From sequence record MN850619.1: a stretch of 64,000 nt of DNA; one strand, given 5' to 3'. Shown here in pieces: positions 1 to 25,812 of the stretch. Source of the stretch: Escherichia phage finno. Each line of letters opens with the position of its first letter. Position 1 is the stretch's first letter. The position numbers were made by a program, and so were the translations under genes. A model generated the notes under the pieces. It ran no database searches, was not told the origin of the DNA, and worked only from the letters and a program-made list of their open reading frames with translations.

Positions 1-225
1 TTTTGCATAGTCACTAGAAAGCTGCTTAAGGCTATAATTTAAAGGGATTGCATATTTAAAATCGTTACGCTGACAGTTAGGGTTTTTAATAGTCACGCCG
101 CCTTGATGGTCATCTGTAAACTTCCAATTATCAAGATTATGGCTTGCTTCGTAGCAATTTACCGCTTCATAGATAATGGTGAATTTTTCTTTTACAACTT
201 CAAAGGTAGCGTCTACAGTTTTCAT
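1..225 (-). CDS. hypothetical protein, N-terminal part only (gene runs off window start)
   Basis: ATG at 225 on minus strand preceded by GGAGA RBS at the end of a repeated intergenic cassette; frame stays open to position 1. Confidence 0.5.
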   Translation of the reverse strand, partial: MKTVDATFEVVKEKFTIIYEAVNCYEASHNLDNWKFTDDHQGGVTIKNPNCQRNDFKYAIPLNYSLKQLSSDYAK

Positions 226-230
226 TTTTG

Positions 231-318
231 AATCTCCAATTTAGGATTTAGTGGTAAAGCTCTTTATCTGGGGCTTAAGATATCAACTTTTAAGCCCCTT
301 GTAAAGTACTTTATTTGT
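231..318 (-). promoter_or_regulatory. intergenic promoter/stem-loop cassette, copy 1
   Basis: On minus strand reads TTTACA, then GGGGCTTA/TAAGCCCC hairpin, then GGAGA RBS and ATG; near-identical copies at 609-698 and 1079-1168. Confidence 0.5.
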
Positions 319-604
319 TATTTTTCAGCTTTGCATAACTTCTCATTGTACGAATGGGGGATGTTAAGGCTATGCGTCTAATATATGCCTTTTTCGTGTA
401 TACATTTGTCTTCCCGATAGTGCTTACACATGTAAAAAGGTTTATCGGTGAATTTTTTAGCTTCAACTGTTTATCAGCCTTCACGCCCCACCTTACAGCA
501 GATTGTTTTCCGTTGTCAACCACTTTCCCGCATAACTTTTTAGCCATAGCGCGAGCGTCATCACGAGTTTTTGCAGTAATTACAACGTTTTTGATAATAG
601 CCAT
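311..604 (-). CDS. hypothetical protein
   Basis: ORF track 311..619; start moved to ATG at 604 because the track start is a TTG inside the GGAGAA RBS. Confidence 0.55.
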   Translation of the reverse strand: MAIIKNVVITAKTRDDARAMAKKLCGKVVDNGKQSAVRWGVKADKQLKLKNSPINLFTCVSTIGKTNVYTKKAYIRRIALTSPIRTMRSYAKLKNNK

Positions 605-608
605 TTTT

Positions 609-698
609 AAGTTCTCCAATTTAGGATTTAGTGGTAAAGCTCTTTATCTGGGGCTTACTTTATCGAACTATAAGCCCCTTGTAAAGTACTTTATTCGT
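609..698 (-). promoter_or_regulatory. intergenic promoter/stem-loop cassette, copy 2
   Basis: Minus strand TTTACA-AGGGGCTTATAGTTCGA-TAAAGT gives -35/-10-like boxes with 17 nt spacing around a GGGGCTTA/TAAGCCCC hairpin, followed by RBS. Confidence 0.5.
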
Positions 699-1074
699 TA
701 ATTTTGAAGATTGTTACATAACCATCGCTCCCGATGATTTGCGATACCCCAGCTTTTTCTACTTTATAGCCCATATTTTCAAGATGATAAACAGCATCAT
801 CATAACCATATGCGCCACCCTGATAACGTCGCTTATCGCATTTTATCAGGTTTTTACCACGTCCAGCAAGTGCATTCAGTACAGCTTTTTCACTTGATAG
901 CGTACCATCTAACATGGTTGCCGTGTAATGGTTGATTCTATTCCCGTTTACATCATACTTAAAATTGAATGCGTGAACAACAATAATGTTGCCTTTAAAA
1001 TTCTCATCAAGTGACTTCTCCAGTACTTTGCGAAAGTTGTCTTTGTTGATGAATTTCGGTGCACGATAAGCCAT
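691..1074 (-). CDS. hypothetical protein
   Basis: 127 aa ORF with AGGAGA RBS 7 nt upstream of ATG; flanked by repeat cassettes. Confidence 0.6.
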   Translation of the reverse strand: MAYRAPKFINKDNFRKVLEKSLDENFKGNIIVVHAFNFKYDVNGNRINHYTATMLDGTLSSEKAVLNALAGRGKNLIKCDKRRYQGGAYGYDDAVYHLENMGYKVEKAGVSQIIGSDGYVTIFKINE

Positions 1075-1078
1075 TTTT

Positions 1079-1168
1079 GAATCTCCTAGTTTAAGGTTAG
1101 TTAGTAAAGCTCTTTATCTGGGGCTTACTTTATCGAACTATAAGCCCCTTGTAAAGTACTTTATTTAT
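1079..1168 (-). promoter_or_regulatory. intergenic promoter/stem-loop cassette, copy 3
   Basis: Almost identical to copy 2 over the hairpin and TTTACA box. Confidence 0.5.
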
Positions 1169-1367
1169 CGTAGTAATAAATTGCTGTCTGTCTTGTAAAC
1201 TTCTTAGTATTTCTTGTCAGATAGCAATTAGAATTAATAGCCGTTTCTACATAGTTGCAATAGTCAGCTTCTGATATTCTGGACCACACGCCACAGATTT
1301 GCATGTAAAAACGTTTTGCCTTTGTGTTAATGTTAGTTGTAACCATCAATTCGCGACTGTACAGCAT
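1161..1367 (-). CDS. hypothetical small protein
   Basis: 68 aa ORF; GGAGA RBS upstream of ATG at 1367. Confidence 0.5.
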   Translation of the reverse strand: MLYSRELMVTTNINTKAKRFYMQICGVWSRISEADYCNYVETAINSNCYLTRNTKKFTRQTAIYYYDK

Positions 1368-1463
1368 TTTTAGATTCTCCAGTTTAGGAAGTGGGCTTGA
1401 TTGCCCGTCTGATGCAAATATTAGATAACCATACTCAAAGAGTCAATAGAAATTTTAAAAATA

Positions 1464-1476
1464 TTTTTTTTTTTTT
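1464..1476. repeat. T13 homopolymer tract (A13 on minus strand)
   Basis: Counted directly in sequence at 1464-1476 inside a non-coding region. Confidence 0.9.
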
Positions 1477-1627
1477 GCAAAATTGTAATGAAACGGGTGC
1501 GCGCGACTACCACAAAACAGAACTACAATCAAGAATTATTTTTCAATCCGCTACAAATTTTTCTGTTGACTTTTATTTCCAGATGTGGTAGCCTTGTGAG
1601 AAATAGCGACATCCCCACCTACACCCA

Positions 1628-1775
1628 CCTACCTGCACAATTCTAAAATGATTTTTCTTGCCCGACCTGATTTTTCTCTGCACGTTTTGAAAATGATTTT
1701 TCTATCCGGCGATGAGATTTTTTGGGATATCTGTACAGACCCCTCCAGATACCTGCACAAATTGAAAATGAAAAA
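1628..1775. repeat. three iteron-like direct repeats, core CTGCAC(A/G)nnTnnAAAATGA
   Basis: Copies at about 1628-1656, 1675-1701 and 1747-1775; GATTTTTCT also occurs three times between them. Confidence 0.7.
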
Positions 1776-1816
1776 GGCCGCCTTACCTTAAATTTTTCAA
1801 TGGGTTAGGCAGCCTT
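1766..1816 (-). terminator. rho-independent terminator candidate after macro-domain gene
   Basis: Imperfect hairpin AAGGCCGCC...GGCAGCCTT followed on minus strand by TTTTTCATTTTC; same stem as the hairpin at 5945-5964. Confidence 0.45.
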
Positions 1817-1849
1817 CTTAGATGATTTGTAGATACTGTGAAGTACTAA

Positions 1850-2629
1850 TCAGCTTATGAATTTGAACTTTTTAGAATACATCAAGTAGTGAACTTCATC
1901 CTGATTTGTTGTGTAGATGTACGCTGCTGGGTAGTTATCAAAGAACACCCCTTCATATCTTCCAAACGGGTCAACTGGGAACATTTCACTGTTACACATA
2001 CCCATCTCACTAACCAGAGGGTAACTAACCTCAACCTTGCCATCAACAAGCTGATAGAGGGTAACTTGATTAGTCTTCCCGTCACTTAGCACGACACCAT
2101 CATAGAATTGTGGTGCTGAGGTAGCATACTTAGGGGTAACTACACTTGCCATTGCTTCATCATAGACGTATAGGTACACATCAACGTTATACATAACACT
2201 ATTAATGAGGCTTTTCACAGCTTGTGCATCTAAACCACCTATACCTGCCCCAATCATGGGTAAACCAATCTTACGAATGTTGTGCAGCCAGCAAAATTTA
2301 CGGAGTTTTTCTAGTGACTCCACTAAGTATCGGTATGATGCACACTTCCCAACATCCAACTGTGTATATAGGTTAAAAATGTAACCATACTCCGTTCGAG
2401 CATGTGACACCTCACCAACCATCTGGTATCCGATATCATGAGCACTGTAGCCAAACTTTTTATGGAATTTCCGGTCAGCTTCTTCAGCTTTTGGGAAAAT
2501 CTTAGCAATTTTTTGAGCGATTCCAGCACCCATGAGGTTACGACAGTTGCAACCATGAGCAATTAACTCAATATCTGTGTTTTTGAAGGCAGCCAGTAAG
2601 TTACCTTTCACAACTTTTACAATACCCAT
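1850..2629 (-). CDS. macro-domain (ADP-ribose binding/hydrolase-like) protein with about 100 aa C-terminal extension
   Basis: Motifs VKVVKGNLL...IAHGCNCRNLMGAGIAQKI and IGLPMIGAGIGGLD resemble macro-domain signatures such as E. coli YmdB (recalled from memory). Confidence 0.6.
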   Translation of the reverse strand: MGIVKVVKGNLLAAFKNTDIELIAHGCNCRNLMGAGIAQKIAKIFPKAEEADRKFHKKFGYSAHDIGYQMVGEVSHARTEYGYIFNLYTQLDVGKCASYRYLVESLEKLRKFCWLHNIRKIGLPMIGAGIGGLDAQAVKSLINSVMYNVDVYLYVYDEAMASVVTPKYATSAPQFYDGVVLSDGKTNQVTLYQLVDGKVEVSYPLVSEMGMCNSEMFPVDPFGRYEGVFFDNYPAAYIYTTNQDEVHYLMYSKKFKFIS

Positions 2630-2830
2630 TTAACATCTCTCCCAAGATTCTTTATCTTCTGAAGGTTTTACACGTTGCCCCTCATGGTCTACCCAGATGC
2701 ACCCACAACCTTCACAGATTACTGGCATTGCATAGCCAGCTTTAAAGTCATCTTCAGTGATAAGACCTTTTAAGTCACCTGTATCACGTCCGAACATTTC
2801 GATAGAACAGTCTTTACAGAAGTCAGCCAT
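2630..2830 (-). CDS. small zinc-ribbon protein (CxxC...CxGC)
   Basis: Start moved to internal ATG at 2830 (MADFCKDC) with AGAGG RBS; avoids 86 nt overlap with upstream gene. Confidence 0.5.
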   Translation of the reverse strand: MADFCKDCSIEMFGRDTGDLKGLITEDDFKAGYAMPVICEGCGCIWVDHEGQRVKPSEDKESWERC

Positions 2831-3050
2831 GAATAATTGCCTCTTGAATGATGATACCTTTACCACAACGGCTTTTAAAGCCTTCCAATGGTTCAGAGAT
2901 GAAGCCACGTAAGCAGTCAGTGAATACTAAGTTCTTCCTGTAAGCTATCACATCATTTGCTGTAAATGGGATGACCTCATTTCGTCCAATGAACACTGCT
3001 GACCTGATAAGTTTTCGTGTCTTTTTATCTCTGGCTAGTATTACTTTCAT
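2823..3050 (-). CDS. hypothetical protein
   Basis: 75 aa ORF in co-directional tightly packed block. Confidence 0.45.
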   Translation of the reverse strand: MKVILARDKKTRKLIRSAVFIGRNEVIPFTANDVIAYRKNLVFTDCLRGFISEPLEGFKSRCGKGIIIQEAIIHG

Positions 3051-3351
3051 AGTTTACCTTCTCAGTTAGCTCATATAAGTCAACATGCTCAATACTGTCA
3101 ATGTTGATATCAATCTTTTTGAAACGCTCCATCACTTCGTTATCAGTCATCCATATCAGACACCAATGATTCTGGATGGATTCTTCAAGAAGGTCAACAC
3201 AATCTTTAAAAGTTTTTGTATCACTTCTTGTTCCTACTACTGCGATTGTTCCATATAGCCACTTACCATTGCCATAAGATACTTGTGCTACGCCAACTTC
3301 TTTACCTTTCTCATAGTAAACGGCTACAAAGTCTCTTCCATTAATCTGCAT
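3025..3351 (-). CDS. hypothetical protein
   Basis: 108 aa ORF. Confidence 0.5.
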   Translation of the reverse strand: MQINGRDFVAVYYEKGKEVGVAQVSYGNGKWLYGTIAVVGTRSDTKTFKDCVDLLEESIQNHWCLIWMTDNEVMERFKKIDINIDSIEHVDLYELTEKVNYESNTSQR

Positions 3352-3353
3352 AG

Positions 3354-3623
3354 TTACTTCCTCGTTTTAAGAATTGCTAAGATTTCTTTAGAGTCTGGTA
3401 AGAACCATGTGTAGTGATTCTCTTTGATTTCTGGATGAGTGTCAACCTTTATTTTGCAGTCTTTACCAACATGCTTAAGTTGTGCTGTGACACCTTGCAT
3501 AAGGATATGACACATCACATTATCCATAATGGTTGGTATGAAGTCAATTCGCATATAAGTTTCTTTTGGTCGCGGTAACAGTAAGTACCCCTCTACATAG
3601 AAAGTATCTTGATTCTCTGTCAT
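3354..3623 (-). CDS. hypothetical protein
   Basis: 89 aa ORF. Confidence 0.5.
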   Translation of the reverse strand: MTENQDTFYVEGYLLLPRPKETYMRIDFIPTIMDNVMCHILMQGVTAQLKHVGKDCKIKVDTHPEIKENHYTWFLPDSKEILAILKTRK

Positions 3624-3889
3624 TGCTGCTTATTCCCTAATAAAATCATGTCAATAAGGTTGTTAGCTTTGATTGTGCACTGGTAAAAGCCGTCACGATA
3701 GAACTCAAGGGCTGCTGCTACATCACTGCCTGTGTTGCCTTTGATGATATACCGTGATTCTTCTTGAGTGTACTTATCACTCTCACTTACTTGGGAGTTT
3801 TTGAATGTACTGCTCACTTTGTTCGTTGAACACCCTGACATAGTTATCAGTAACACAAACATTATAAAACTCTGGCTTAGTTTTTTCAT
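3620..3889 (-). CDS. putative lipoprotein (possible o-spanin)
   Basis: N-terminus MKKLSQSFIMFVLLITMSGC has signal peptide with lipobox-like Cys; start lies inside the upstream membrane-protein gene in another frame. Confidence 0.4.
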   Translation of the reverse strand: MKKLSQSFIMFVLLITMSGCSTNKVSSTFKNSQVSESDKYTQEESRYIIKGNTGSDVAAALEFYRDGFYQCTIKANNLIDMILLGNKQQ

Positions 3890-4130
3890 ATGTTAGTACC
3901 TCTTTTGTATGCTTATTCTTAGCAAGCACATCTTTCAAATCATTTTTGTAATTGGTGCTCAGTGTGACTAATCCTTCCTGATAAGCATCTTTAGCAACAC
4001 TTATGAGCTTTTGATTATTTAGCTCAGTTTCAGCAACTTGATAGTCTCTGTAAGAGTATCCTCCCCAGACACCTGCCCCAACTAAGAAAACAATTATGAA
4101 AGTAGCTTGACAGAACTCTTTAAATGTCAT
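3783..4130 (-). CDS. membrane protein with N-terminal TM helix (possible i-spanin)
   Basis: Hydrophobic segment ATFIIVFLVGAGVWGG then a charged region; the lipoprotein ORF is embedded at its 3' end. Confidence 0.4.
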   Translation of the reverse strand: MTFKEFCQATFIIVFLVGAGVWGGYSYRDYQVAETELNNQKLISVAKDAYQEGLVTLSTNYKNDLKDVLAKNKHTKEVLTYEKTKPEFYNVCVTDNYVRVFNEQSEQYIQKLPSK

Positions 4131-4144
4131 TTAACAATCTCCTG

Positions 4145-4172
4145 AAAATGAAAAAGGCTCCCGAAGGAGCCT
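4145..4172 (-). terminator. rho-independent terminator
   Basis: GGCTCC-CGAA-GGAGCC hairpin followed on minus strand by TTTTTCATTTTC. Confidence 0.7.
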
Positions 4173-4183
4173 GTATCTTAACC

Positions 4184-4648
4184 TTAACCGAGGACTTTAG
4201 CAAGGACATTTGCAGCCATCGAAGAAGCTTTTGCAGCAGCAGCTACCCCAGCTTTGACAGTGCTATCCTTGATAGCAGATACCGTTGCAGCATCAGTAAA
4301 GAGATAAGTAGTTGTTTTAGAACCACTTGTAAAGGAAAGCATGAGAGCAGTTTCCAGATTGAAAGAGCGATACGGAGCACCTTCTTTAACGATACCTTCA
4401 GCACCTAATTCTGAAGCCATCCCCATATCATAGATGGTCATCAGGTTTTCTTTGTGTGCTGTCGTTGAGCCAGAACCTTTTACGTGTTTCTTAACATTCA
4501 AAAGAGCACGATACTCTCGGATGTTGCCGTCTGCTTTTACATTGACAGCACGGAAGATTTTACCCTCAAAGTTGCTCTTGATAATGTTACGAACTACTTC
4601 AGATTTGTTTGCCGTAACGTCCAGTGCTACCGTAATGATATTGTTCAT
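4184..4648 (-). CDS. hypothetical protein
   Basis: 154 aa ORF. Confidence 0.55.
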   Translation of the reverse strand: MNNIITVALDVTANKSEVVRNIIKSNFEGKIFRAVNVKADGNIREYRALLNVKKHVKGSGSTTAHKENLMTIYDMGMASELGAEGIVKEGAPYRSFNLETALMLSFTSGSKTTTYLFTDAATVSAIKDSTVKAGVAAAAKASSMAANVLAKVLG

Positions 4649-4657
4649 AAGTTTCTC

Positions 4658-5353
4658 TCAATGTTTAACTAACATGGTTTTGATGTGTGGAAGGATTCTG
4701 TTCACCTTCTGCACATTCTTCTCTGTATCTTCTATAAAACATACTATATTAAAGTAAGGCAGAATGCAAGACTGAATCATCCTCACTTTCAAACTTTCTG
4801 CACTTATAGAGTTAGTACCAAAACCACGCATAAAAAGCATGTAGTCATGCTCTGTGTTATGTCTTAAAAACATCTCAGTAGGTATTCTCTGAGATTCGCC
4901 TCTCGCTGTCAAGAGTCCAACAGCAGCATGATTAGCAATTGCATCAATGATATTGAAAACATACGTTGGTTTTGCTCTTACAGAGTCAAGAAGATTAGTG
5001 TACTGCGAAAATGAACCATCAGTCAATTCCGTTGAACAATCTTCGTGATTAAAATTTGTAAGAACTCCATCAATATCTGCTAAGATAAGATTACCTTTCT
5101 CTACAAGGTCTTTATTGACTATGACTAAACTATCACGTTTTACACCTATGGATTGTCCAGTCTCTTTGTCCACAACGTTCACAATTGGTTCTGATGTGTG
5201 GAACTCTTCAAGTGAACATACAACTTCTCTTGCGGTGTCTTCAAAATCCCTGCACTGTTCTGGAGTCCATACACAGGAATCAAGACCTAGCTCATGAGGG
5301 TGCAAGTCATAAGCATGGCACAATACTTCATCAGACTTTCTTAATTTTTTCAT
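4658..5353 (-). CDS. hypothetical protein, possible HAD-like phosphatase/nucleotidase
   Basis: DIDGVL, LLTARGE and FIEDT resemble HAD motifs I, II and IV, but motif I is unusually far from the N-terminus. Confidence 0.3.
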   Translation of the reverse strand: MKKLRKSDEVLCHAYDLHPHELGLDSCVWTPEQCRDFEDTAREVVCSLEEFHTSEPIVNVVDKETGQSIGVKRDSLVIVNKDLVEKGNLILADIDGVLTNFNHEDCSTELTDGSFSQYTNLLDSVRAKPTYVFNIIDAIANHAAVGLLTARGESQRIPTEMFLRHNTEHDYMLFMRGFGTNSISAESLKVRMIQSCILPYFNIVCFIEDTEKNVQKVNRILPHIKTMLVKH

Positions 5354-5879
5354 GGTTTACCTTAGAAATGTTTGTTGCAAATTCACATTGAGCGATTACT
5401 TTCATATTGTTATAGACATCTTGAGAATATTTCTTAGCTTTAGGGATTCTGTACGAATACCCAGCATTATATGATGCTAAAACTTTTTGTAAAGTCTTCT
5501 TTGACTTTGGCTGACCATGCACCTTTGTCCAAAACTCAAGCTCTTTGTGAGTTTCCTTAGCAGCATAGTCAAAGTCTTTTAAGAGTTTCTTTTTAGCCAC
5601 ATTAGGACTGATTTTGTTACGCTTTACAACAGTCTTCAAGTGATTCTGGAAAATACCATAATCATGCGTCTTTTTATTCTCTACCTTCAGACCTAACTCT
5701 GACTCTTGTAAGGCTATAGCAGCTAGAGTGATACCCCAACCTTTACCCATGTTATTCTCACCATACTGGTAAGCTTTTAACATGTTTACTTTTTGGCTAA
5801 TTGATAGCTCTGGGCAGTCAACTGCATAAGATAAGTGTGCTGTAAACATTAAGCACAAACCTAGAATCAATTTCTTCAT
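5331..5879 (-). CDS. secreted protein with SLT-like motif (possible lytic transglycosylase)
   Basis: Signal peptide MKKLILGLCLMFTAHLSYA; AIALQESELG resembles the lytic transglycosylase catalytic Glu-Ser motif. Confidence 0.4.
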   Translation of the reverse strand: MKKLILGLCLMFTAHLSYAVDCPELSISQKVNMLKAYQYGENNMGKGWGITLAAIALQESELGLKVENKKTHDYGIFQNHLKTVVKRNKISPNVAKKKLLKDFDYAAKETHKELEFWTKVHGQPKSKKTLQKVLASYNAGYSYRIPKAKKYSQDVYNNMKVIAQCEFATNISKVNHEKIKKV

Positions 5880-5935
5880 TGGTTCTCCTGTTTAGTTTAT
5901 CGTGACAACAATTATACAGCACTCTGCACAAAATA

Positions 5936-5968
5936 CAAATAAAAAAGGCCGCCGAAGCAGCCTTTTAA
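5936..5968 (-). terminator. rho-independent terminator after rIIB-like gene
   Basis: AAGGCCGCC-GAA-GCAGCCTT hairpin flanked by A-run and T-run. Confidence 0.65.
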
Positions 5969-5979
5969 GAAATTACTTA

Positions 5980-7089
5980 TTAGATTTCACGTTTACGTTG
6001 GGAGATAAGTTCTCCAGCAGTGCCAACGATGACATGCAAAGCTTCAGTCTTACCATCCCATTCTTTCAGCACTTTACGTTGATTATCAACGATTGCTGCA
6101 ACTTCATAACGAGACGAACGCATCTTCATATCGTTGTAATCAGTTGGAACAGATACAACATCTCGTGGATGGACACGAACCTTCAGGATTGTATCACCTG
6201 AGAAGCAACGAACGTAATCCCAAGCACCAACATGAAGACCTTGAGAGCAAGTTACGTTACGGTTATTATCAACCATCCAACGTGGCATCTCTACAATGTT
6301 ACCCAAATCATTAGGTACTCTGTATGTGTGGGAGTCAACCAGCTTACCTTCACGAGTAGATACTTTCTTCCAACCAATGATGTAGCCTTCTTCATCGATT
6401 TCAACATCAAGGTGGGATACGAAGCCCCAAAGTTGTTCTACAGAGTCTTTAGATGGGTTTTCCATCAGTTTTTCGAAGAACATTACAAGGCGTTCAAAAC
6501 CCTTATCTCCAGTCTTCATCATGTGAAGAATACGGTCAACCAGAGTAGAACGCATCTCAACAGCACCGTAGAATAACTTATCCCCTTTGATGGTGATAGC
6601 GCCCTGAGTGAAGTTTTCGATAGACTTACGAATGTTCATCAGTTCGAAAGCTTTCTTATACTCACCGGATACAACAGCCATCACGATTTCTTTGTAGTTC
6701 GGATGGGTAGATTCAACGATTTCAGAATCTGCACCGAAAGTCATGATAACAGAGTCACCAGTAATCATGTACTCAATCTGGTTGCCATTCTGCATAGCTT
6801 CATGCAGTTTATTTACCGGAGCTTTCTGTACATCCTCTTTAACAGCCTTTTTAACTGGCTTGTCAGCTTTCTTCTTAAAGGTCTTAGCAACTTGCTTTAA
6901 AGTCTTCGTAGCCGGTGTAGAAGTTGCCTTTTTATTCCCTTTTAAGGTTGCTTCATGACGCTCTACAGCACGACCGACTGAACGGGTTGAGGTGTTAAAT
7001 TTCTGTGCAATAGCTGTTTTAGTCAGCTTGCCCTCTTTAACCAGTTTGTAAATTTCTGCGTCAATCTGTGCTTTAGTTTTAGTAGTCAT
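5980..7089 (-). CDS. rIIB: rIIB-like protein
   Basis: Directly downstream of rIIA-like gene; C-terminal KVRVHPRDVVSVPTDYNDMKMR matches T4 rIIB as recalled from memory. Confidence 0.7.
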   Translation of the reverse strand: MTTKTKAQIDAEIYKLVKEGKLTKTAIAQKFNTSTRSVGRAVERHEATLKGNKKATSTPATKTLKQVAKTFKKKADKPVKKAVKEDVQKAPVNKLHEAMQNGNQIEYMITGDSVIMTFGADSEIVESTHPNYKEIVMAVVSGEYKKAFELMNIRKSIENFTQGAITIKGDKLFYGAVEMRSTLVDRILHMMKTGDKGFERLVMFFEKLMENPSKDSVEQLWGFVSHLDVEIDEEGYIIGWKKVSTREGKLVDSHTYRVPNDLGNIVEMPRWMVDNNRNVTCSQGLHVGAWDYVRCFSGDTILKVRVHPRDVVSVPTDYNDMKMRSSRYEVAAIVDNQRKVLKEWDGKTEALHVIVGTAGELISQRKREI

Positions 7090-10110: not shown

Positions 10111-11892
10111 TTAAAGCTGCTTGTCAATATTATTTCGAATATCACCAAGAGTTGTGTAACCGAACTGCTCAGAGTCACTAAAGACTAAACGTAAAGCACA
10201 AGCTGGGTGGTCAAGTACATCTGCAAAACTCTGGAATCCATAGCCATCTACAGCTTTCAGCTTATCACCATCCCACATAGGTGCTACACCACCAAAGGCA
10301 GATTTCTTAACACCACTATCTGTTTTAGGGTCTTTTGCAAGCATAATCTCTTTACCACCAATGCTTGCAAGAGTTGCTTTGACAGCAAATGCAAAGGTGT
10401 CACGAGTCATGTACTGGTAAGTGTAAGAACCTACGCCAAACACCACGTTAGAGCTTGCAAAACCCATTTCATACAGACGCTTCAGGATTTCGTTTGCACG
10501 TTCCAGTGTGATAGAGTCACCATAGATAAGGCCGATATGCTCGTCCAGTACCTTAAATCCTTTAGAGTTAATAGTTCCCCCAAAGATGTTGTACAGTGTC
10601 TTAATAGCTCCATCAATCTCAGCTACAGGACGTGTTACAACGTTTGCAGAGCCAACCATATAAGCATTTTTCAACATCACTGTATCAGCAACTTCAAAGT
10701 CTTCTCGGTCAACAACCATTTCGTAGCCTTCTGACAGTAGCCATCCAGCAATACCATAGCTGATGTTTTCAAGCTTCATGTTCAGAACAGCATTCAGCAT
10801 TGTGTCACTGGCTTCCAGCTTGCTTAGGTGCTCGTAATAAGCCTTTTTAGCACACTCTAAGTGGATTGCTTTATAACCTGTGACAATATGTACAGGGTCT
10901 CCAGAGTCAGGACGAATTACCAGTTTACCGTCACGTTCCATAATTTCTTTACGAAGTGCTGGTAAGATTTCTGACACAGTTCTCCAGAAGTTATAAGTGT
11001 CTGAAACAATACTTGCAATACCAGTTGGGTAAGTTTCTGTTAAGAAACGACGGAAGGTTTGTAACTCACCTTTAAATCGTCTTTCTTCTTCAACCAACTC
11101 GTTACCACCTTCCCAAGCAATGTTTGCACACATTACAGAGTGTTCAGTGGCTGGTACAGAGCTTCCAATATCAGAGATTGGATAGGTCTGCCCATAGATA
11201 CGTTTAGCCGTGTATACAGCAGGGAAGCTATCAGTCCCTTTAAAGCTGGTTAAGTGTCCTACAGCGTTGAATGCGTCATCAGTAAAGCCGGACATACCAC
11301 GCATAGCAAAGTCATGGCACTGATAAGGTAAATGCAAGTCGTTGTCGCAAGTGAGGTCAGCCCACTTCTTACAGATACGTTTGTAGTGCAATGCAATAGT
11401 TGCAATGGTGCAAGCCTTCCAAATCTCAGCAGAGAAAGCGTCTTCTAGATAACCTGCTACCCAATGGAAACCTGAAACAGTGTTCTGGAAGACAATCATT
11501 GGAACACGCATAGGAACAACTGTACCTTCTTCTACAGCGTATACTTCAACTGGTAGATAGCCTAAATCGTGAAGTGCTTCCCAATGCTCTCGACCGATAG
11601 CATCTTTACCCAGAACACCATTCATGACTTCTAAGATTTCGTCAACTGCTCCTTTTTTATCACGTTCAAAGAAAGTGGCGTTCCAGTGGTCTATCAAGTA
11701 ATCTTTAACAAAACGTTGAATACCAAAAGCTACTACACCATCAATTGCTAAGGGGCTGTTAAACCATTTGTCGCTACGTGGTGTCAGGTTGAACATCAAG
11801 TAATCTGTTGCACTGGGGTATTGGTAAACATGGCCAGATTTGTAAGCGTCCGCGTTTAAACCTGCTGGTACTGCATAAAGTGATTTAGTCAT
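10111..11892 (-). CDS. nadV: nicotinamide phosphoribosyltransferase (NAMPT)
   Basis: 593 aa; N-terminal ADAYKSGHVYQYP is characteristic of NAMPT. Confidence 0.8.
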   Translation of the reverse strand: MTKSLYAVPAGLNADAYKSGHVYQYPSATDYLMFNLTPRSDKWFNSPLAIDGVVAFGIQRFVKDYLIDHWNATFFERDKKGAVDEILEVMNGVLGKDAIGREHWEALHDLGYLPVEVYAVEEGTVVPMRVPMIVFQNTVSGFHWVAGYLEDAFSAEIWKACTIATIALHYKRICKKWADLTCDNDLHLPYQCHDFAMRGMSGFTDDAFNAVGHLTSFKGTDSFPAVYTAKRIYGQTYPISDIGSSVPATEHSVMCANIAWEGGNELVEEERRFKGELQTFRRFLTETYPTGIASIVSDTYNFWRTVSEILPALRKEIMERDGKLVIRPDSGDPVHIVTGYKAIHLECAKKAYYEHLSKLEASDTMLNAVLNMKLENISYGIAGWLLSEGYEMVVDREDFEVADTVMLKNAYMVGSANVVTRPVAEIDGAIKTLYNIFGGTINSKGFKVLDEHIGLIYGDSITLERANEILKRLYEMGFASSNVVFGVGSYTYQYMTRDTFAFAVKATLASIGGKEIMLAKDPKTDSGVKKSAFGGVAPMWDGDKLKAVDGYGFQSFADVLDHPACALRLVFSDSEQFGYTTLGDIRNNIDKQL

Positions 11893-11937: not shown

Positions 11938-12843
11938 TCAATCAATGGTTGCTACAGTAACTTGGGCGTAATGTGTTAAGCCACGGTCTTTAGCTTCACC
12001 TAAAGAGTTTGTAGTGTAGATATGGTCAATACCATTGTCAAGTAAGTTTTCAACACCTTTAGAGAAAATACCATGAGTTACATAGAGTTCCACACGTTTT
12101 GCACCTGCTTCACGGAGATGTTTCGCTGCTTCTATGAAGGTTCGACCACCATCACAGATATCATCCAGAATCATGACGGTTTTATCTGTCAAATCAGCAT
12201 CGTCAAGGATTCGCATACCAGTGATTTCTCCCGTCTTAAGATTGCGCACTTTAGACATTGTGATGTATGGTTTATCCACCTCTTTAGCAGTCTCTGCAAT
12301 CTTCTTAGCAGCACCTGCATCTGGGGCTACTAAGTAATCAATTAGAGGGTCATTTGCATAGTGAACTGCAATTTCCTTTTGAGGAATACTCTGGAAGCAG
12401 TTAAACAGGTTATCTGGTACATAGCTGTGAGGGTCAACTGCACAGACTGCATCAAAACCCATTGCATTAACCTGTTGTGCAAACACTTTCAAAGCTGCTG
12501 CATCACCTTTAAACATGTGACGGTCGTAACGTGCATTTGGCAAATAGTAAAAGATAGCAGTCTTCATAGCAAACTTATGGGGTACTAAATCGTCAATTGC
12601 TTCTTTAGCAAGTGCCACAGCAAATAATGTGTCTTTGTCATAACCCTTTACAATCATAATCACGTTGTTGATGGATGATGCTGCATAAGCAGTAAAATCA
12701 ACAAGCTCTTGTGAAAAGTGTCCACCAATCTCACCAGAAGGGAACTGGATGATGTTAAACTCTTCTTCATGAGACCCTTTTGTCGGTGAATGAATTATAA
12801 CACGAATAGATGTTTTCATAGTTTTCTCTCTCTTTATTCCCAA
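11938..12843 (-). CDS. prs: ribose-phosphate pyrophosphokinase (PRPP synthetase)
   Basis: 301 aa; VMILDDICDGGRTF is the PRPP-binding phosphoribosyltransferase motif. Confidence 0.8.
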   Translation of the reverse strand: MGIKREKTMKTSIRVIIHSPTKGSHEEEFNIIQFPSGEIGGHFSQELVDFTAYAASSINNVIMIVKGYDKDTLFAVALAKEAIDDLVPHKFAMKTAIFYYLPNARYDRHMFKGDAAALKVFAQQVNAMGFDAVCAVDPHSYVPDNLFNCFQSIPQKEIAVHYANDPLIDYLVAPDAGAAKKIAETAKEVDKPYITMSKVRNLKTGEITGMRILDDADLTDKTVMILDDICDGGRTFIEAAKHLREAGAKRVELYVTHGIFSKGVENLLDNGIDHIYTTNSLGEAKDRGLTHYAQVTVATID

Positions 12844-25314: not shown

Positions 25315-25812
25315 TCAAGCACAATTTGCTTTCATTACCTTATGGATTCTTTTTTCAGCATCTTCATAAGTTTCTTTAGTAATAAACTTAATTGCTGCAA
25401 TATTGGCATTGTAGAAGAGTCTGAGCTTCGAGTCAATCCTTTTTGTCATTACATCGAACTTATGTTGAAGGTTTGCTTCACCATAAACTAGACCACCTTT
25501 TGTGTAGTAGGTTTGGATAATGTAAAAGTCAAAAGACTCTTTTCCAAAACTCTCAATATCTTTTTTAATATACTCAGAAGATGTTTCGTAAGTCATCCAA
25601 TCACTCTCCTTAGTGACTACCTTCTTCCGAGTCTTCCCAGCAACTTTTCTTTTTGTCACACTGTTAAGTTGTTTCTTTCCGATATAATATTGTCCGGTCT
25701 TCTTACAGTGTACTAAATAGACAAAGCCAAAATGTTTAGTGGGGTCAACTTCCCCACATAAAGATACCCAATGACCATAGGTGGGGCAATTGCCAAATCC
25801 TTTAATCTTCAT
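25315..25812 (-). CDS. GIY-YIG nuclease-like protein
   Basis: FVYLVHCKKTGQYYIGKK resembles the GIY-(10 aa)-YIG motif. Confidence 0.4.
   Translation of the reverse strand: MKIKGFGNCPTYGHWVSLCGEVDPTKHFGFVYLVHCKKTGQYYIGKKQLNSVTKRKVAGKTRKKVVTKESDWMTYETSSEYIKKDIESFGKESFDFYIIQTYYTKGGLVYGEANLQHKFDVMTKRIDSKLRLFYNANIAAIKFITKETYEDAEKRIHKVMKANCA

Follow-up and report, generated by a model that had tools for sequence, protein, structure and literature searches.

A two-domain macrodomain protein of a Felixounavirus-type phage with a Gln-type active site and a predicted anti-DarT role

Does a macro-domain gene near one end of the window (the whole 64,000-nt stretch of DNA analysed here) help the phage to reverse an ADP-ribosylation-based host defence, and what is the C-terminal extension that its product carries? 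The gene lies on the minus strand, encodes 259 amino acids from an ATG start to a stop codon at 1850-1852, and occupies exactly the position given in an earlier sequence-only reading (Table 1). The PHROG 335 profile covered the full-length protein (E=5e-85), and full-length homologues with the same architecture were found in about 256-257 phage records. Because about 256 records carried a full-length homologue and dN/dS within the allele was as low as 0.05-0.08, this ORF is a real gene and not a chance ORF. The first 6 kb of the window showed 92-95% identity to many Felixounavirus genomes, for example that of Salmonella phage Si3.

Table 1. Features of the macro-domain locus in window coordinates. 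A1, family alignment of 18 diverse sequences; A3, direct alignment including DarG, TARG1, PhiKZ AdfM, T4 AdfM and FO1a
Feature	Position	Strand	Basis
Complete ORF (macro domain, linker and C-terminal domain)	1850..2629	-	ORF list; PHROG 335; homologue architecture
Macro domain, residues 1-160, ALC1/TARG1/DarG-like class, Gln-type active site	2150..2629	-	Pfam, NCBIfam, PADLOC, Foldseek, T4 Tk.4 homology
H25-G-C-N28 (HGCN motif) codons	2546..2557	-	A3; H25 and N28 invariant in A1
Q90 codon (in NLYTQ)	2360..2362	-	A3, HMMER alignments; invariant in A1
M125-G132 (MIGAGIGG) codons, glycine-rich phosphate-binding loop	2234..2257	-	A1, A3
Linker, residues 161-174	2108..2149	-	AlphaFold2 block pLDDT 67 (residues 161-170)
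C-terminal orphan domain, residues 175-259 (85 residues)	1853..2107	-	AlphaFold2: six beta-strands then terminal helix
66-aa CxxC/CxGCxC protein (phrog_2210)	2630..2830	-	Sequence and PHROG match
Allele-replacement block, no blastn match to FO1a (common allele)	1697..2486	.	blastn, window 1-6000 vs FO1a

By synteny with Si3, the macro gene lies inside a long co-directional block of non-structural genes, including those for a PseT-like polynucleotide kinase, rIIB and rIIA and, farther upstream, nicotinamide phosphoribosyltransferase (NAMPT) and PRPP synthetase. The immediate neighbours of the macro gene are small phage genes for proteins without known function, and no darT is annotated in Si3. 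A promoter and terminator scan around the macro gene gave no informative signal. The TAA stop of the upstream gene, which encodes a 66-aa CxxC protein, directly adjoins the ATG of the macro gene, suggesting that the two are likely to be translationally coupled. This small protein was identical in FO1a at 65 of its 66 residues, though the adjacent macro protein was just 41% identical. An obligate two-gene module was ruled out, because the partner was not kept in distant loci: at the distant fusion locus L009 a different small zinc-ribbon protein occupied its position, and at locus L008 there was none.

Elsewhere in the window, synteny with Si3 pointed to NAD- or nucleotide-related ORFs at 10111-11892, 11938-12843 (-) and 25315-25812 (-). 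Their Si3 counterparts are annotated as nicotinamide phosphoribosyltransferase, ribose-phosphate pyrophosphokinase and a small 'NAD synthetase' protein, which suggests that the phage carries NAD-salvage capacity beside its ADP-ribose-handling macro protein. A 93-nt intergenic cassette was present three times (233-325, 613-705 and 1083-1175; copies 74-100% identical) and separates small early genes. It holds a GGGGCTTA...TAAGCCCC hairpin, matched many intergenic sites in FO1a, SUSP2 and Si3, and is probably a repeated terminator/promoter/RBS unit. ARAGORN found no tRNA gene across the whole 64-kb window (1-64000). In Si3 (L007; 2594-6094 and 19778-22664), the genes for DNA polymerase and for the large subunit of anaerobic ribonucleotide reductase are both annotated as split in two, and HNH or homing endonuclease genes lie near or between the parts.

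The N-terminal ~160 amino acids had been read as a macro domain from the motifs KGNLL...IAHGCNCRNLMGAGIAQKI (residues 8-41), IGLPMIGAGIGGLD (121-134) and VYLYVYDE (151-158), all of which are present. Two checks proposed with that reading, a profile search and a fold comparison, both returned macro domains. Specifically, Pfam Macro (PF01661) matched residues 25-140 over profile positions 2-116 of 118 and scored 28.9 bits (E=1.2e-6; gathering cutoff, 22). An AlphaFold2 model of the full-length protein, built on 18 homologues, reached a pLDDT of 86.5 and a pTM of 0.84. Its nearest solved structures in Foldseek were TARG1, the DarG proteins of Thermus aquaticus (Taq) and Mycobacterium tuberculosis (Mtb), and Poa1p (E 1e-8 to 1e-7, probability 1.00), and the target-normalised TM-score to solved macro domains was up to 0.82. 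Together with the conserved loops MGAG (33-36) and IGAGIGG (126-132), the model predicts a macro fold, three-layered (alpha/beta/alpha) with glycine-rich diphosphate-binding loops.

The closest functional evidence comes from two phage proteins that share phrog_335 with the window protein. Both T4 Tk.4 and PhiKZ gp104 received the name AdfM, for anti-DarT factor macrodomain, in 2025-2026 (bioRxiv 10.1101/2025.11.20.689424; PMC13309987). A transposon screen on DarTG2 gave T4 Tk.4 as its one significant hit, and a phage with this gene knocked out was sensitised to DarTG2 (bioRxiv 10.1101/2025.11.20.689424). PhiKZ gp104 removes DarT2-installed ADP-ribose from DNA (PMC13309987); it is the one phage macrodomain for which removal of DarT2 marks has been proved biochemically. 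The sequence-only reading had suggested that this phage gene reverses host defences based on ADP-ribosylation; such a role is now supported for these homologues, and homology links it to the window protein through the PHROG shared with both and through DarG, its sole match among defence-system models.

Tk.4 was 33% identical to the window protein over 159 aa, that is, over the whole macro domain (E=9e-23). The active-site motifs HGCNC and NLYTQ are identical in the two proteins, and both are encoded by non-structural phage genes. However, Tk.4 is a macro-only protein of 155 aa, whereas the window protein has an extra ~100 aa of linker and C-terminal domain, and Tk.4 has Asp where the window protein has Asn10 (Asn as in the 'GNLL' of DarG). 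PhiKZ gp104 shares with the window protein the macro fold, the conserved Asn (N23 and N28, respectively) and an aligned Gly-rich loop, at an overall identity of 20%. Unlike the window protein, this chimallivirus DarG2-like protein has a lysine (Lys78) where the former has Gln90, is a true DarG-type enzyme (E=1e-24 in comparison with Mtb DarG; 133 bits with the DarG model, for which the window protein has 58), is imported into the phage nucleus and has no C-terminal domain.

DarG was the only defence-system model matched in PADLOC (E=3e-16, 57.9 bits, profile positions 2-150 of 329), and was also the only meaningful match among curated bacterial families (NCBIfam NF048014; E=2e-15, profile positions 2-153 of 338). 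The NCBIfam score of 56.8 bits lies far below the equivalog cutoff of 250, because the second half of DarG was unmatched; a full-length match above this cutoff, as expected of DarG2 itself, was thus absent. The PADLOC DarG scores decreased from PhiKZ AdfM (132.9 bits) through the window protein to T4 AdfM (36.0 bits), and the NCBIfam profile ranked the three alike, so the window protein is more DarG-like than one genetically validated AdfM. In comparisons of the window macro domain with DarG PDB chains, E-values were about 1e-7 to 1e-10. DarG2 of T. aquaticus or M. tuberculosis (PDB 5m31, 5m3e and 5m3i) resembles the window protein in macro class (Foldseek E=3e-8, target-normalised TM-score 0.76-0.80), in placing another domain after the macro domain, and in Asn22, kept as N28. 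It differs in that its catalytic Lys80 is replaced by Gln90, the second domains are unrelated in sequence, and the phage gene has no darT next to it.

The active site was compared in the family alignment and in the direct alignment (A1 and A3 in Table 1). In the direct alignment, N28, which precedes the first phosphate-binding loop, fell in the same column as N22 of Taq DarG and N23 of PhiKZ AdfM, and Q90 in the column of the catalytic lysines of DarG (K80), PhiKZ AdfM (K78) and TARG1 (K84). The second catalytic residue of TARG1, D125, aligned with G131 of the window protein, which ruled out D134 as its counterpart. The window protein, FO1a and T4 AdfM all have Gln in the Q90 column (L-Y-T-Q), compared with the F-P-T-K motif of DarG. 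Since Gln90 was invariant in all 18 family members and in 7 of 7 sequenced copies of the window allele, and is present in T4 AdfM too, it is not a defect of the window copy. In addition, G127, G129 and G132 were invariant in the family, and their loop aligned with the loops of DarG and TARG1.

SCO6735 of Streptomyces coelicolor (PDB 5e3b) offers a bacterial precedent for a Gln at this position: this stand-alone macrodomain belongs to the ALC1/TARG1-like class, has no Lys/Asp dyad and carries Gln85 in place of the catalytic Lys, yet it removes ADP-ribose linked to thymidine from DNA and confers protection against DarT (PMC9411070). Its Q85A/E mutants were inactive and N27S nearly so, and His24 and Gly126/Gly128 also matter (PMC9411070). 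The window protein has Q90, N28 and H25 and no Lys/Asp dyad, and with the Gly-rich loop these residues appear to reproduce the His24/Asn27/Gln85/Gly126/128 constellation, the equivalence being drawn by transitivity through TARG1 and DarG. Inactivation of the macro domain by the Lys-to-Gln change was ruled out, because SCO6735 uses Gln and T4 AdfM also has it. SCO6735 is, however, a bacterial chromosomal protein without a C-terminal domain, and its sequence similarity to the window protein was weak (E=8e-4 alone, 3e-5 with a profile). Moreover, the Lys of the 'MGKG' loop of DarG and SCO6735 (SCO6735 Lys34 by register) is replaced by Ala35 in the MGAG loop of the window protein. In SCO6735, the Lys34/Lys89 pair positions the DNA backbone (PMC9411070). 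A conserved K/R at residue 95, five positions past Gln90, was found in the family alignment and might compensate for the missing MGKG lysine or stand in for Lys89.

On balance, we lean towards an AdfM-type, orphan-antitoxin-like glycohydrolase that would remove DarT2-attached ADP-ribose by a Gln-assisted, water-mediated route and would carry an accessory C-terminal domain. We infer both its substrate and the defence system that it targets: the N-terminal macro domain would bind ADP-ribose and hydrolyse the ADP-ribose that DarT2 attaches to thymidines of single-stranded phage DNA, and removal of the mark would let replication go on in Salmonella or E. coli carrying DarTG2. Gln90, held by Asn28, would position the distal ribose for attack by water, as in SCO6735, and the Lys-based route of DarG and TARG1 would not be expected. 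The AdfM reading is supported by the surroundings of the gene, a co-directional run of non-structural genes that includes rIIA/rIIB and genes of nucleotide or NAD metabolism, and by a C-terminal domain that folds confidently and is under purifying selection. Against it, the T4 evidence is genetic and comes from a preprint, activity of a Gln-type phage macrodomain is a prediction, the similarity to DarG is much weaker than that of PhiKZ AdfM, and the MGKG lysine is Ala35. Literature searches for a link between Felixounavirus or Bas63 and macro domains or DarTG returned no such paper.

The substrates of this macro-domain class also include protein and RNA, which counts against the AdfM reading. 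It is conceivable, but rather unlikely, that the window protein is an ADP-ribosyl hydrolase for RNA or protein marks set by another host toxin or defence ADP-ribosyltransferase, with the C-terminal domain serving in target recognition. Human TARG1/OARD1 (PDB 4j5q/r/s), which shares the His of HxCxx with the window protein, was together with yeast Poa1p (6lfq) the best solved-structure match by sequence and fold, and the window macro domain is only distantly related to DarG; an extra domain confined to one lineage could also redirect specificity. SCO6735 itself acts on a protein substrate as well (PMC9411070), yet its Gln-type site is documented for the cleavage of thymidine-linked ADP-ribose (PMC9411070). 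Furthermore, the sole experimental phenotype of a close homologue, T4 tk.4, is DarTG2 resistance (bioRxiv 10.1101/2025.11.20.689424), and no defence-system profile other than DarG was matched.

A Poa1p-type metabolite enzyme, that is, an ADP-ribose-1''-phosphate phosphatase or O-acetyl-ADP-ribose deacetylase engaged in NAD/nucleotide salvage or in clean-up of RNA-repair by-products, seems improbable. Public records do name the protein a phosphatase, Poa1p-like or an OAADPr deacetylase, but these names come from domain transfer and not from assays. The N-terminal half, including the HxCNC motif shared with Poa1p, resembles that enzyme (Foldseek 6lfr E=1e-7); however, the Poa1p sequence matches were confined to residues ~1-62, whereas TARG1 and DarG matched the whole domain, and the full-domain fold match to Poa1p was no better than that to TARG1 or DarG. 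Although a PseT-like polynucleotide kinase, NAMPT and PRPP synthetase are encoded in the same block, a metabolic role would not explain why the two alleles diverge so strongly or why there is an extra domain, and the phenotype of the T4 homologue was defence-specific, the gene being otherwise dispensable (bioRxiv 10.1101/2025.11.20.689424). Least probable is a non-catalytic sponge or decoy that sequesters Thoeris signals (gcADPR or His-ADPR) or blocks DarT stoichiometrically without hydrolysis. In its favour, the canonical Lys and the Asp of TARG1 are absent, host Thoeris II effectors bind His-ADPR via a macro domain, and catalytically dead SCO6735, DarG and TARG1 macro domains still inhibit DarT by interaction (PMC9411070). 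Against it, the H/N/Q constellation is exactly that needed for SCO6735 catalysis (PMC9411070), its invariance in 18 family members exceeds what ligand binding alone usually requires, and literature searches found no phage macrodomain sponge.

The C-terminal ~100 aa, in which the sequence-only reading had recognised no motif, remained an orphan in profile, fold and exhaustive sequence searches alike. No Pfam match was obtained at E up to 10, no solved structure matched, and the BFVD viral structure library returned only the SUSP2 orthologue (E=0.03). In an hmmsearch against 1.84e9 representative proteins, this domain was found solely in macro fusions and in two truncated copies (P0035 and P0038); the other matches were PQQ-propeller or tandem-repeat noise. 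Because only macro fusions were found, and because the more distant fusion proteins also lie in syntenic Ounavirinae-like contexts, the C-terminal domain is thus specific to the macro protein of the Ounavirinae-type phage lineage.

Residues ~175-259 had a pLDDT around 90 in the full-length model, and the domain modelled alone reached a pLDDT of 85.9 and a pTM of 0.79. A short helix was predicted at residues 158-164, followed by the linker, the lowest-confidence block of the AlphaFold2 model outside the ligand loops. Among seven phages with the window allele, the C-terminal and macro parts were alike in dN/dS, at 0.05-0.08. This part is therefore a real domain under constraint (purifying selection), and the same values ruled out ongoing positive selection on it. 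Between alleles, the C-terminal domain was 23-31% identical, compared with about 50% for the macro domain, and its only invariant residues were P173 and G178, in a P-x-x-[FY]-D-G motif. Its pI ranged from 4.7 to 10.1 across the family and net charge was not kept, which argues against a conserved acidic (ss)DNA mimic or a basic DNA binder. A separate T4 gene fused to the macro domain was ruled out, as T4 Tk.3, encoded downstream of tk.4, showed no similarity to this domain. A homologue of the second domain of DarG was likewise ruled out, the DarG profiles ending at about position 150.

As a best guess, we infer for the C-terminal domain the role of a constrained accessory module that may mediate protein-protein contact. 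The partner could be DarT2 itself, by analogy with the second domain of DarG, or a replication- or ssDNA-associated protein. The match of DarG profiles to the macro half only, and dN/dS values without a sign of positive selection, count against this guess. A more specific proposal, which we consider unlikely, is that the domain is a toxin- or effector-binding module and makes the protein a two-mechanism orphan antitoxin, convergent on the DarG design. If the proposal were true, the protein would combine erasure of the DNA mark with stoichiometric capture of DarT2, via a fold unrelated to that of DarG, and the deeply divergent, recombining alleles of Felixounaviruses would track different host DarT2 variants.

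The window allele was found in 12 of ~257 Felixounavirus-type records, representing 10 distinct phages that infect Salmonella or E. coli, and the remaining records carry the common allele, with ~41% protein identity to it. In comparison with FO1a, DNA identity was 93-97% upstream, was lost at ~2487 inside the macro gene, and returned at ~1696, downstream, at 81%. Within the gene, dS between VpaE1_ev035 (L011) and Si3 (L001) was 0.44 for the macro half but 0.017 for the C-terminal half, implying a recombination breakpoint near the domain boundary. These patterns point to cassette-like allele exchange by recombination and not to rapid evolution by point mutation. Such exchange is typical of accessory and anti-defence loci, but is no proof of such a role. 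The sole residue unique to the window copy is Met250 (codon 1880-1882), which is Leu in 6 of 6 other sequenced copies of the allele. A 43-nt element (CTGCACAATTCTAAAATGATTTTTC...) was present three times in the spacer that directly follows the macro gene (1633-1675, 1678-1720 and 1753-1795; 63-100% identical); copies 2 and 3 lie within the block without a blastn match to FO1a, and copy 1 just outside.

Part of this picture was already known: the macro domain is annotated in public records ('macro domain protein', 'Poa1p-like' or 'phosphatase'), and an anti-DarT2 role of phage macrodomains has been published. In the searches made, the two-domain architecture of Ounavirinae, the Gln-type site as the norm of the Tk.4/Felix branch and the deep allelic dimorphism were not found described. 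Felixounaviruses, which infect Salmonella and E. coli, are in wide use for typing and biocontrol and as candidates for therapy, and their hosts include carriers of DarTG systems. If the gene is the anti-DarTG2 factor of Felixounaviruses, it would help to predict host range, and a third major phage group would join the T4-like and jumbo phages as carriers of AdfM. The water-mediated mechanism proposed for SCO6735 could then be tested on a Gln-type macrodomain that occurs naturally in a phage. With its C-terminal domain, a known type of anti-defence enzyme carries a small, clean, constrained module of no known fold family, and the two ~40%-identical alleles, found in nearly identical genomes, lend themselves to a swap experiment on specificity.
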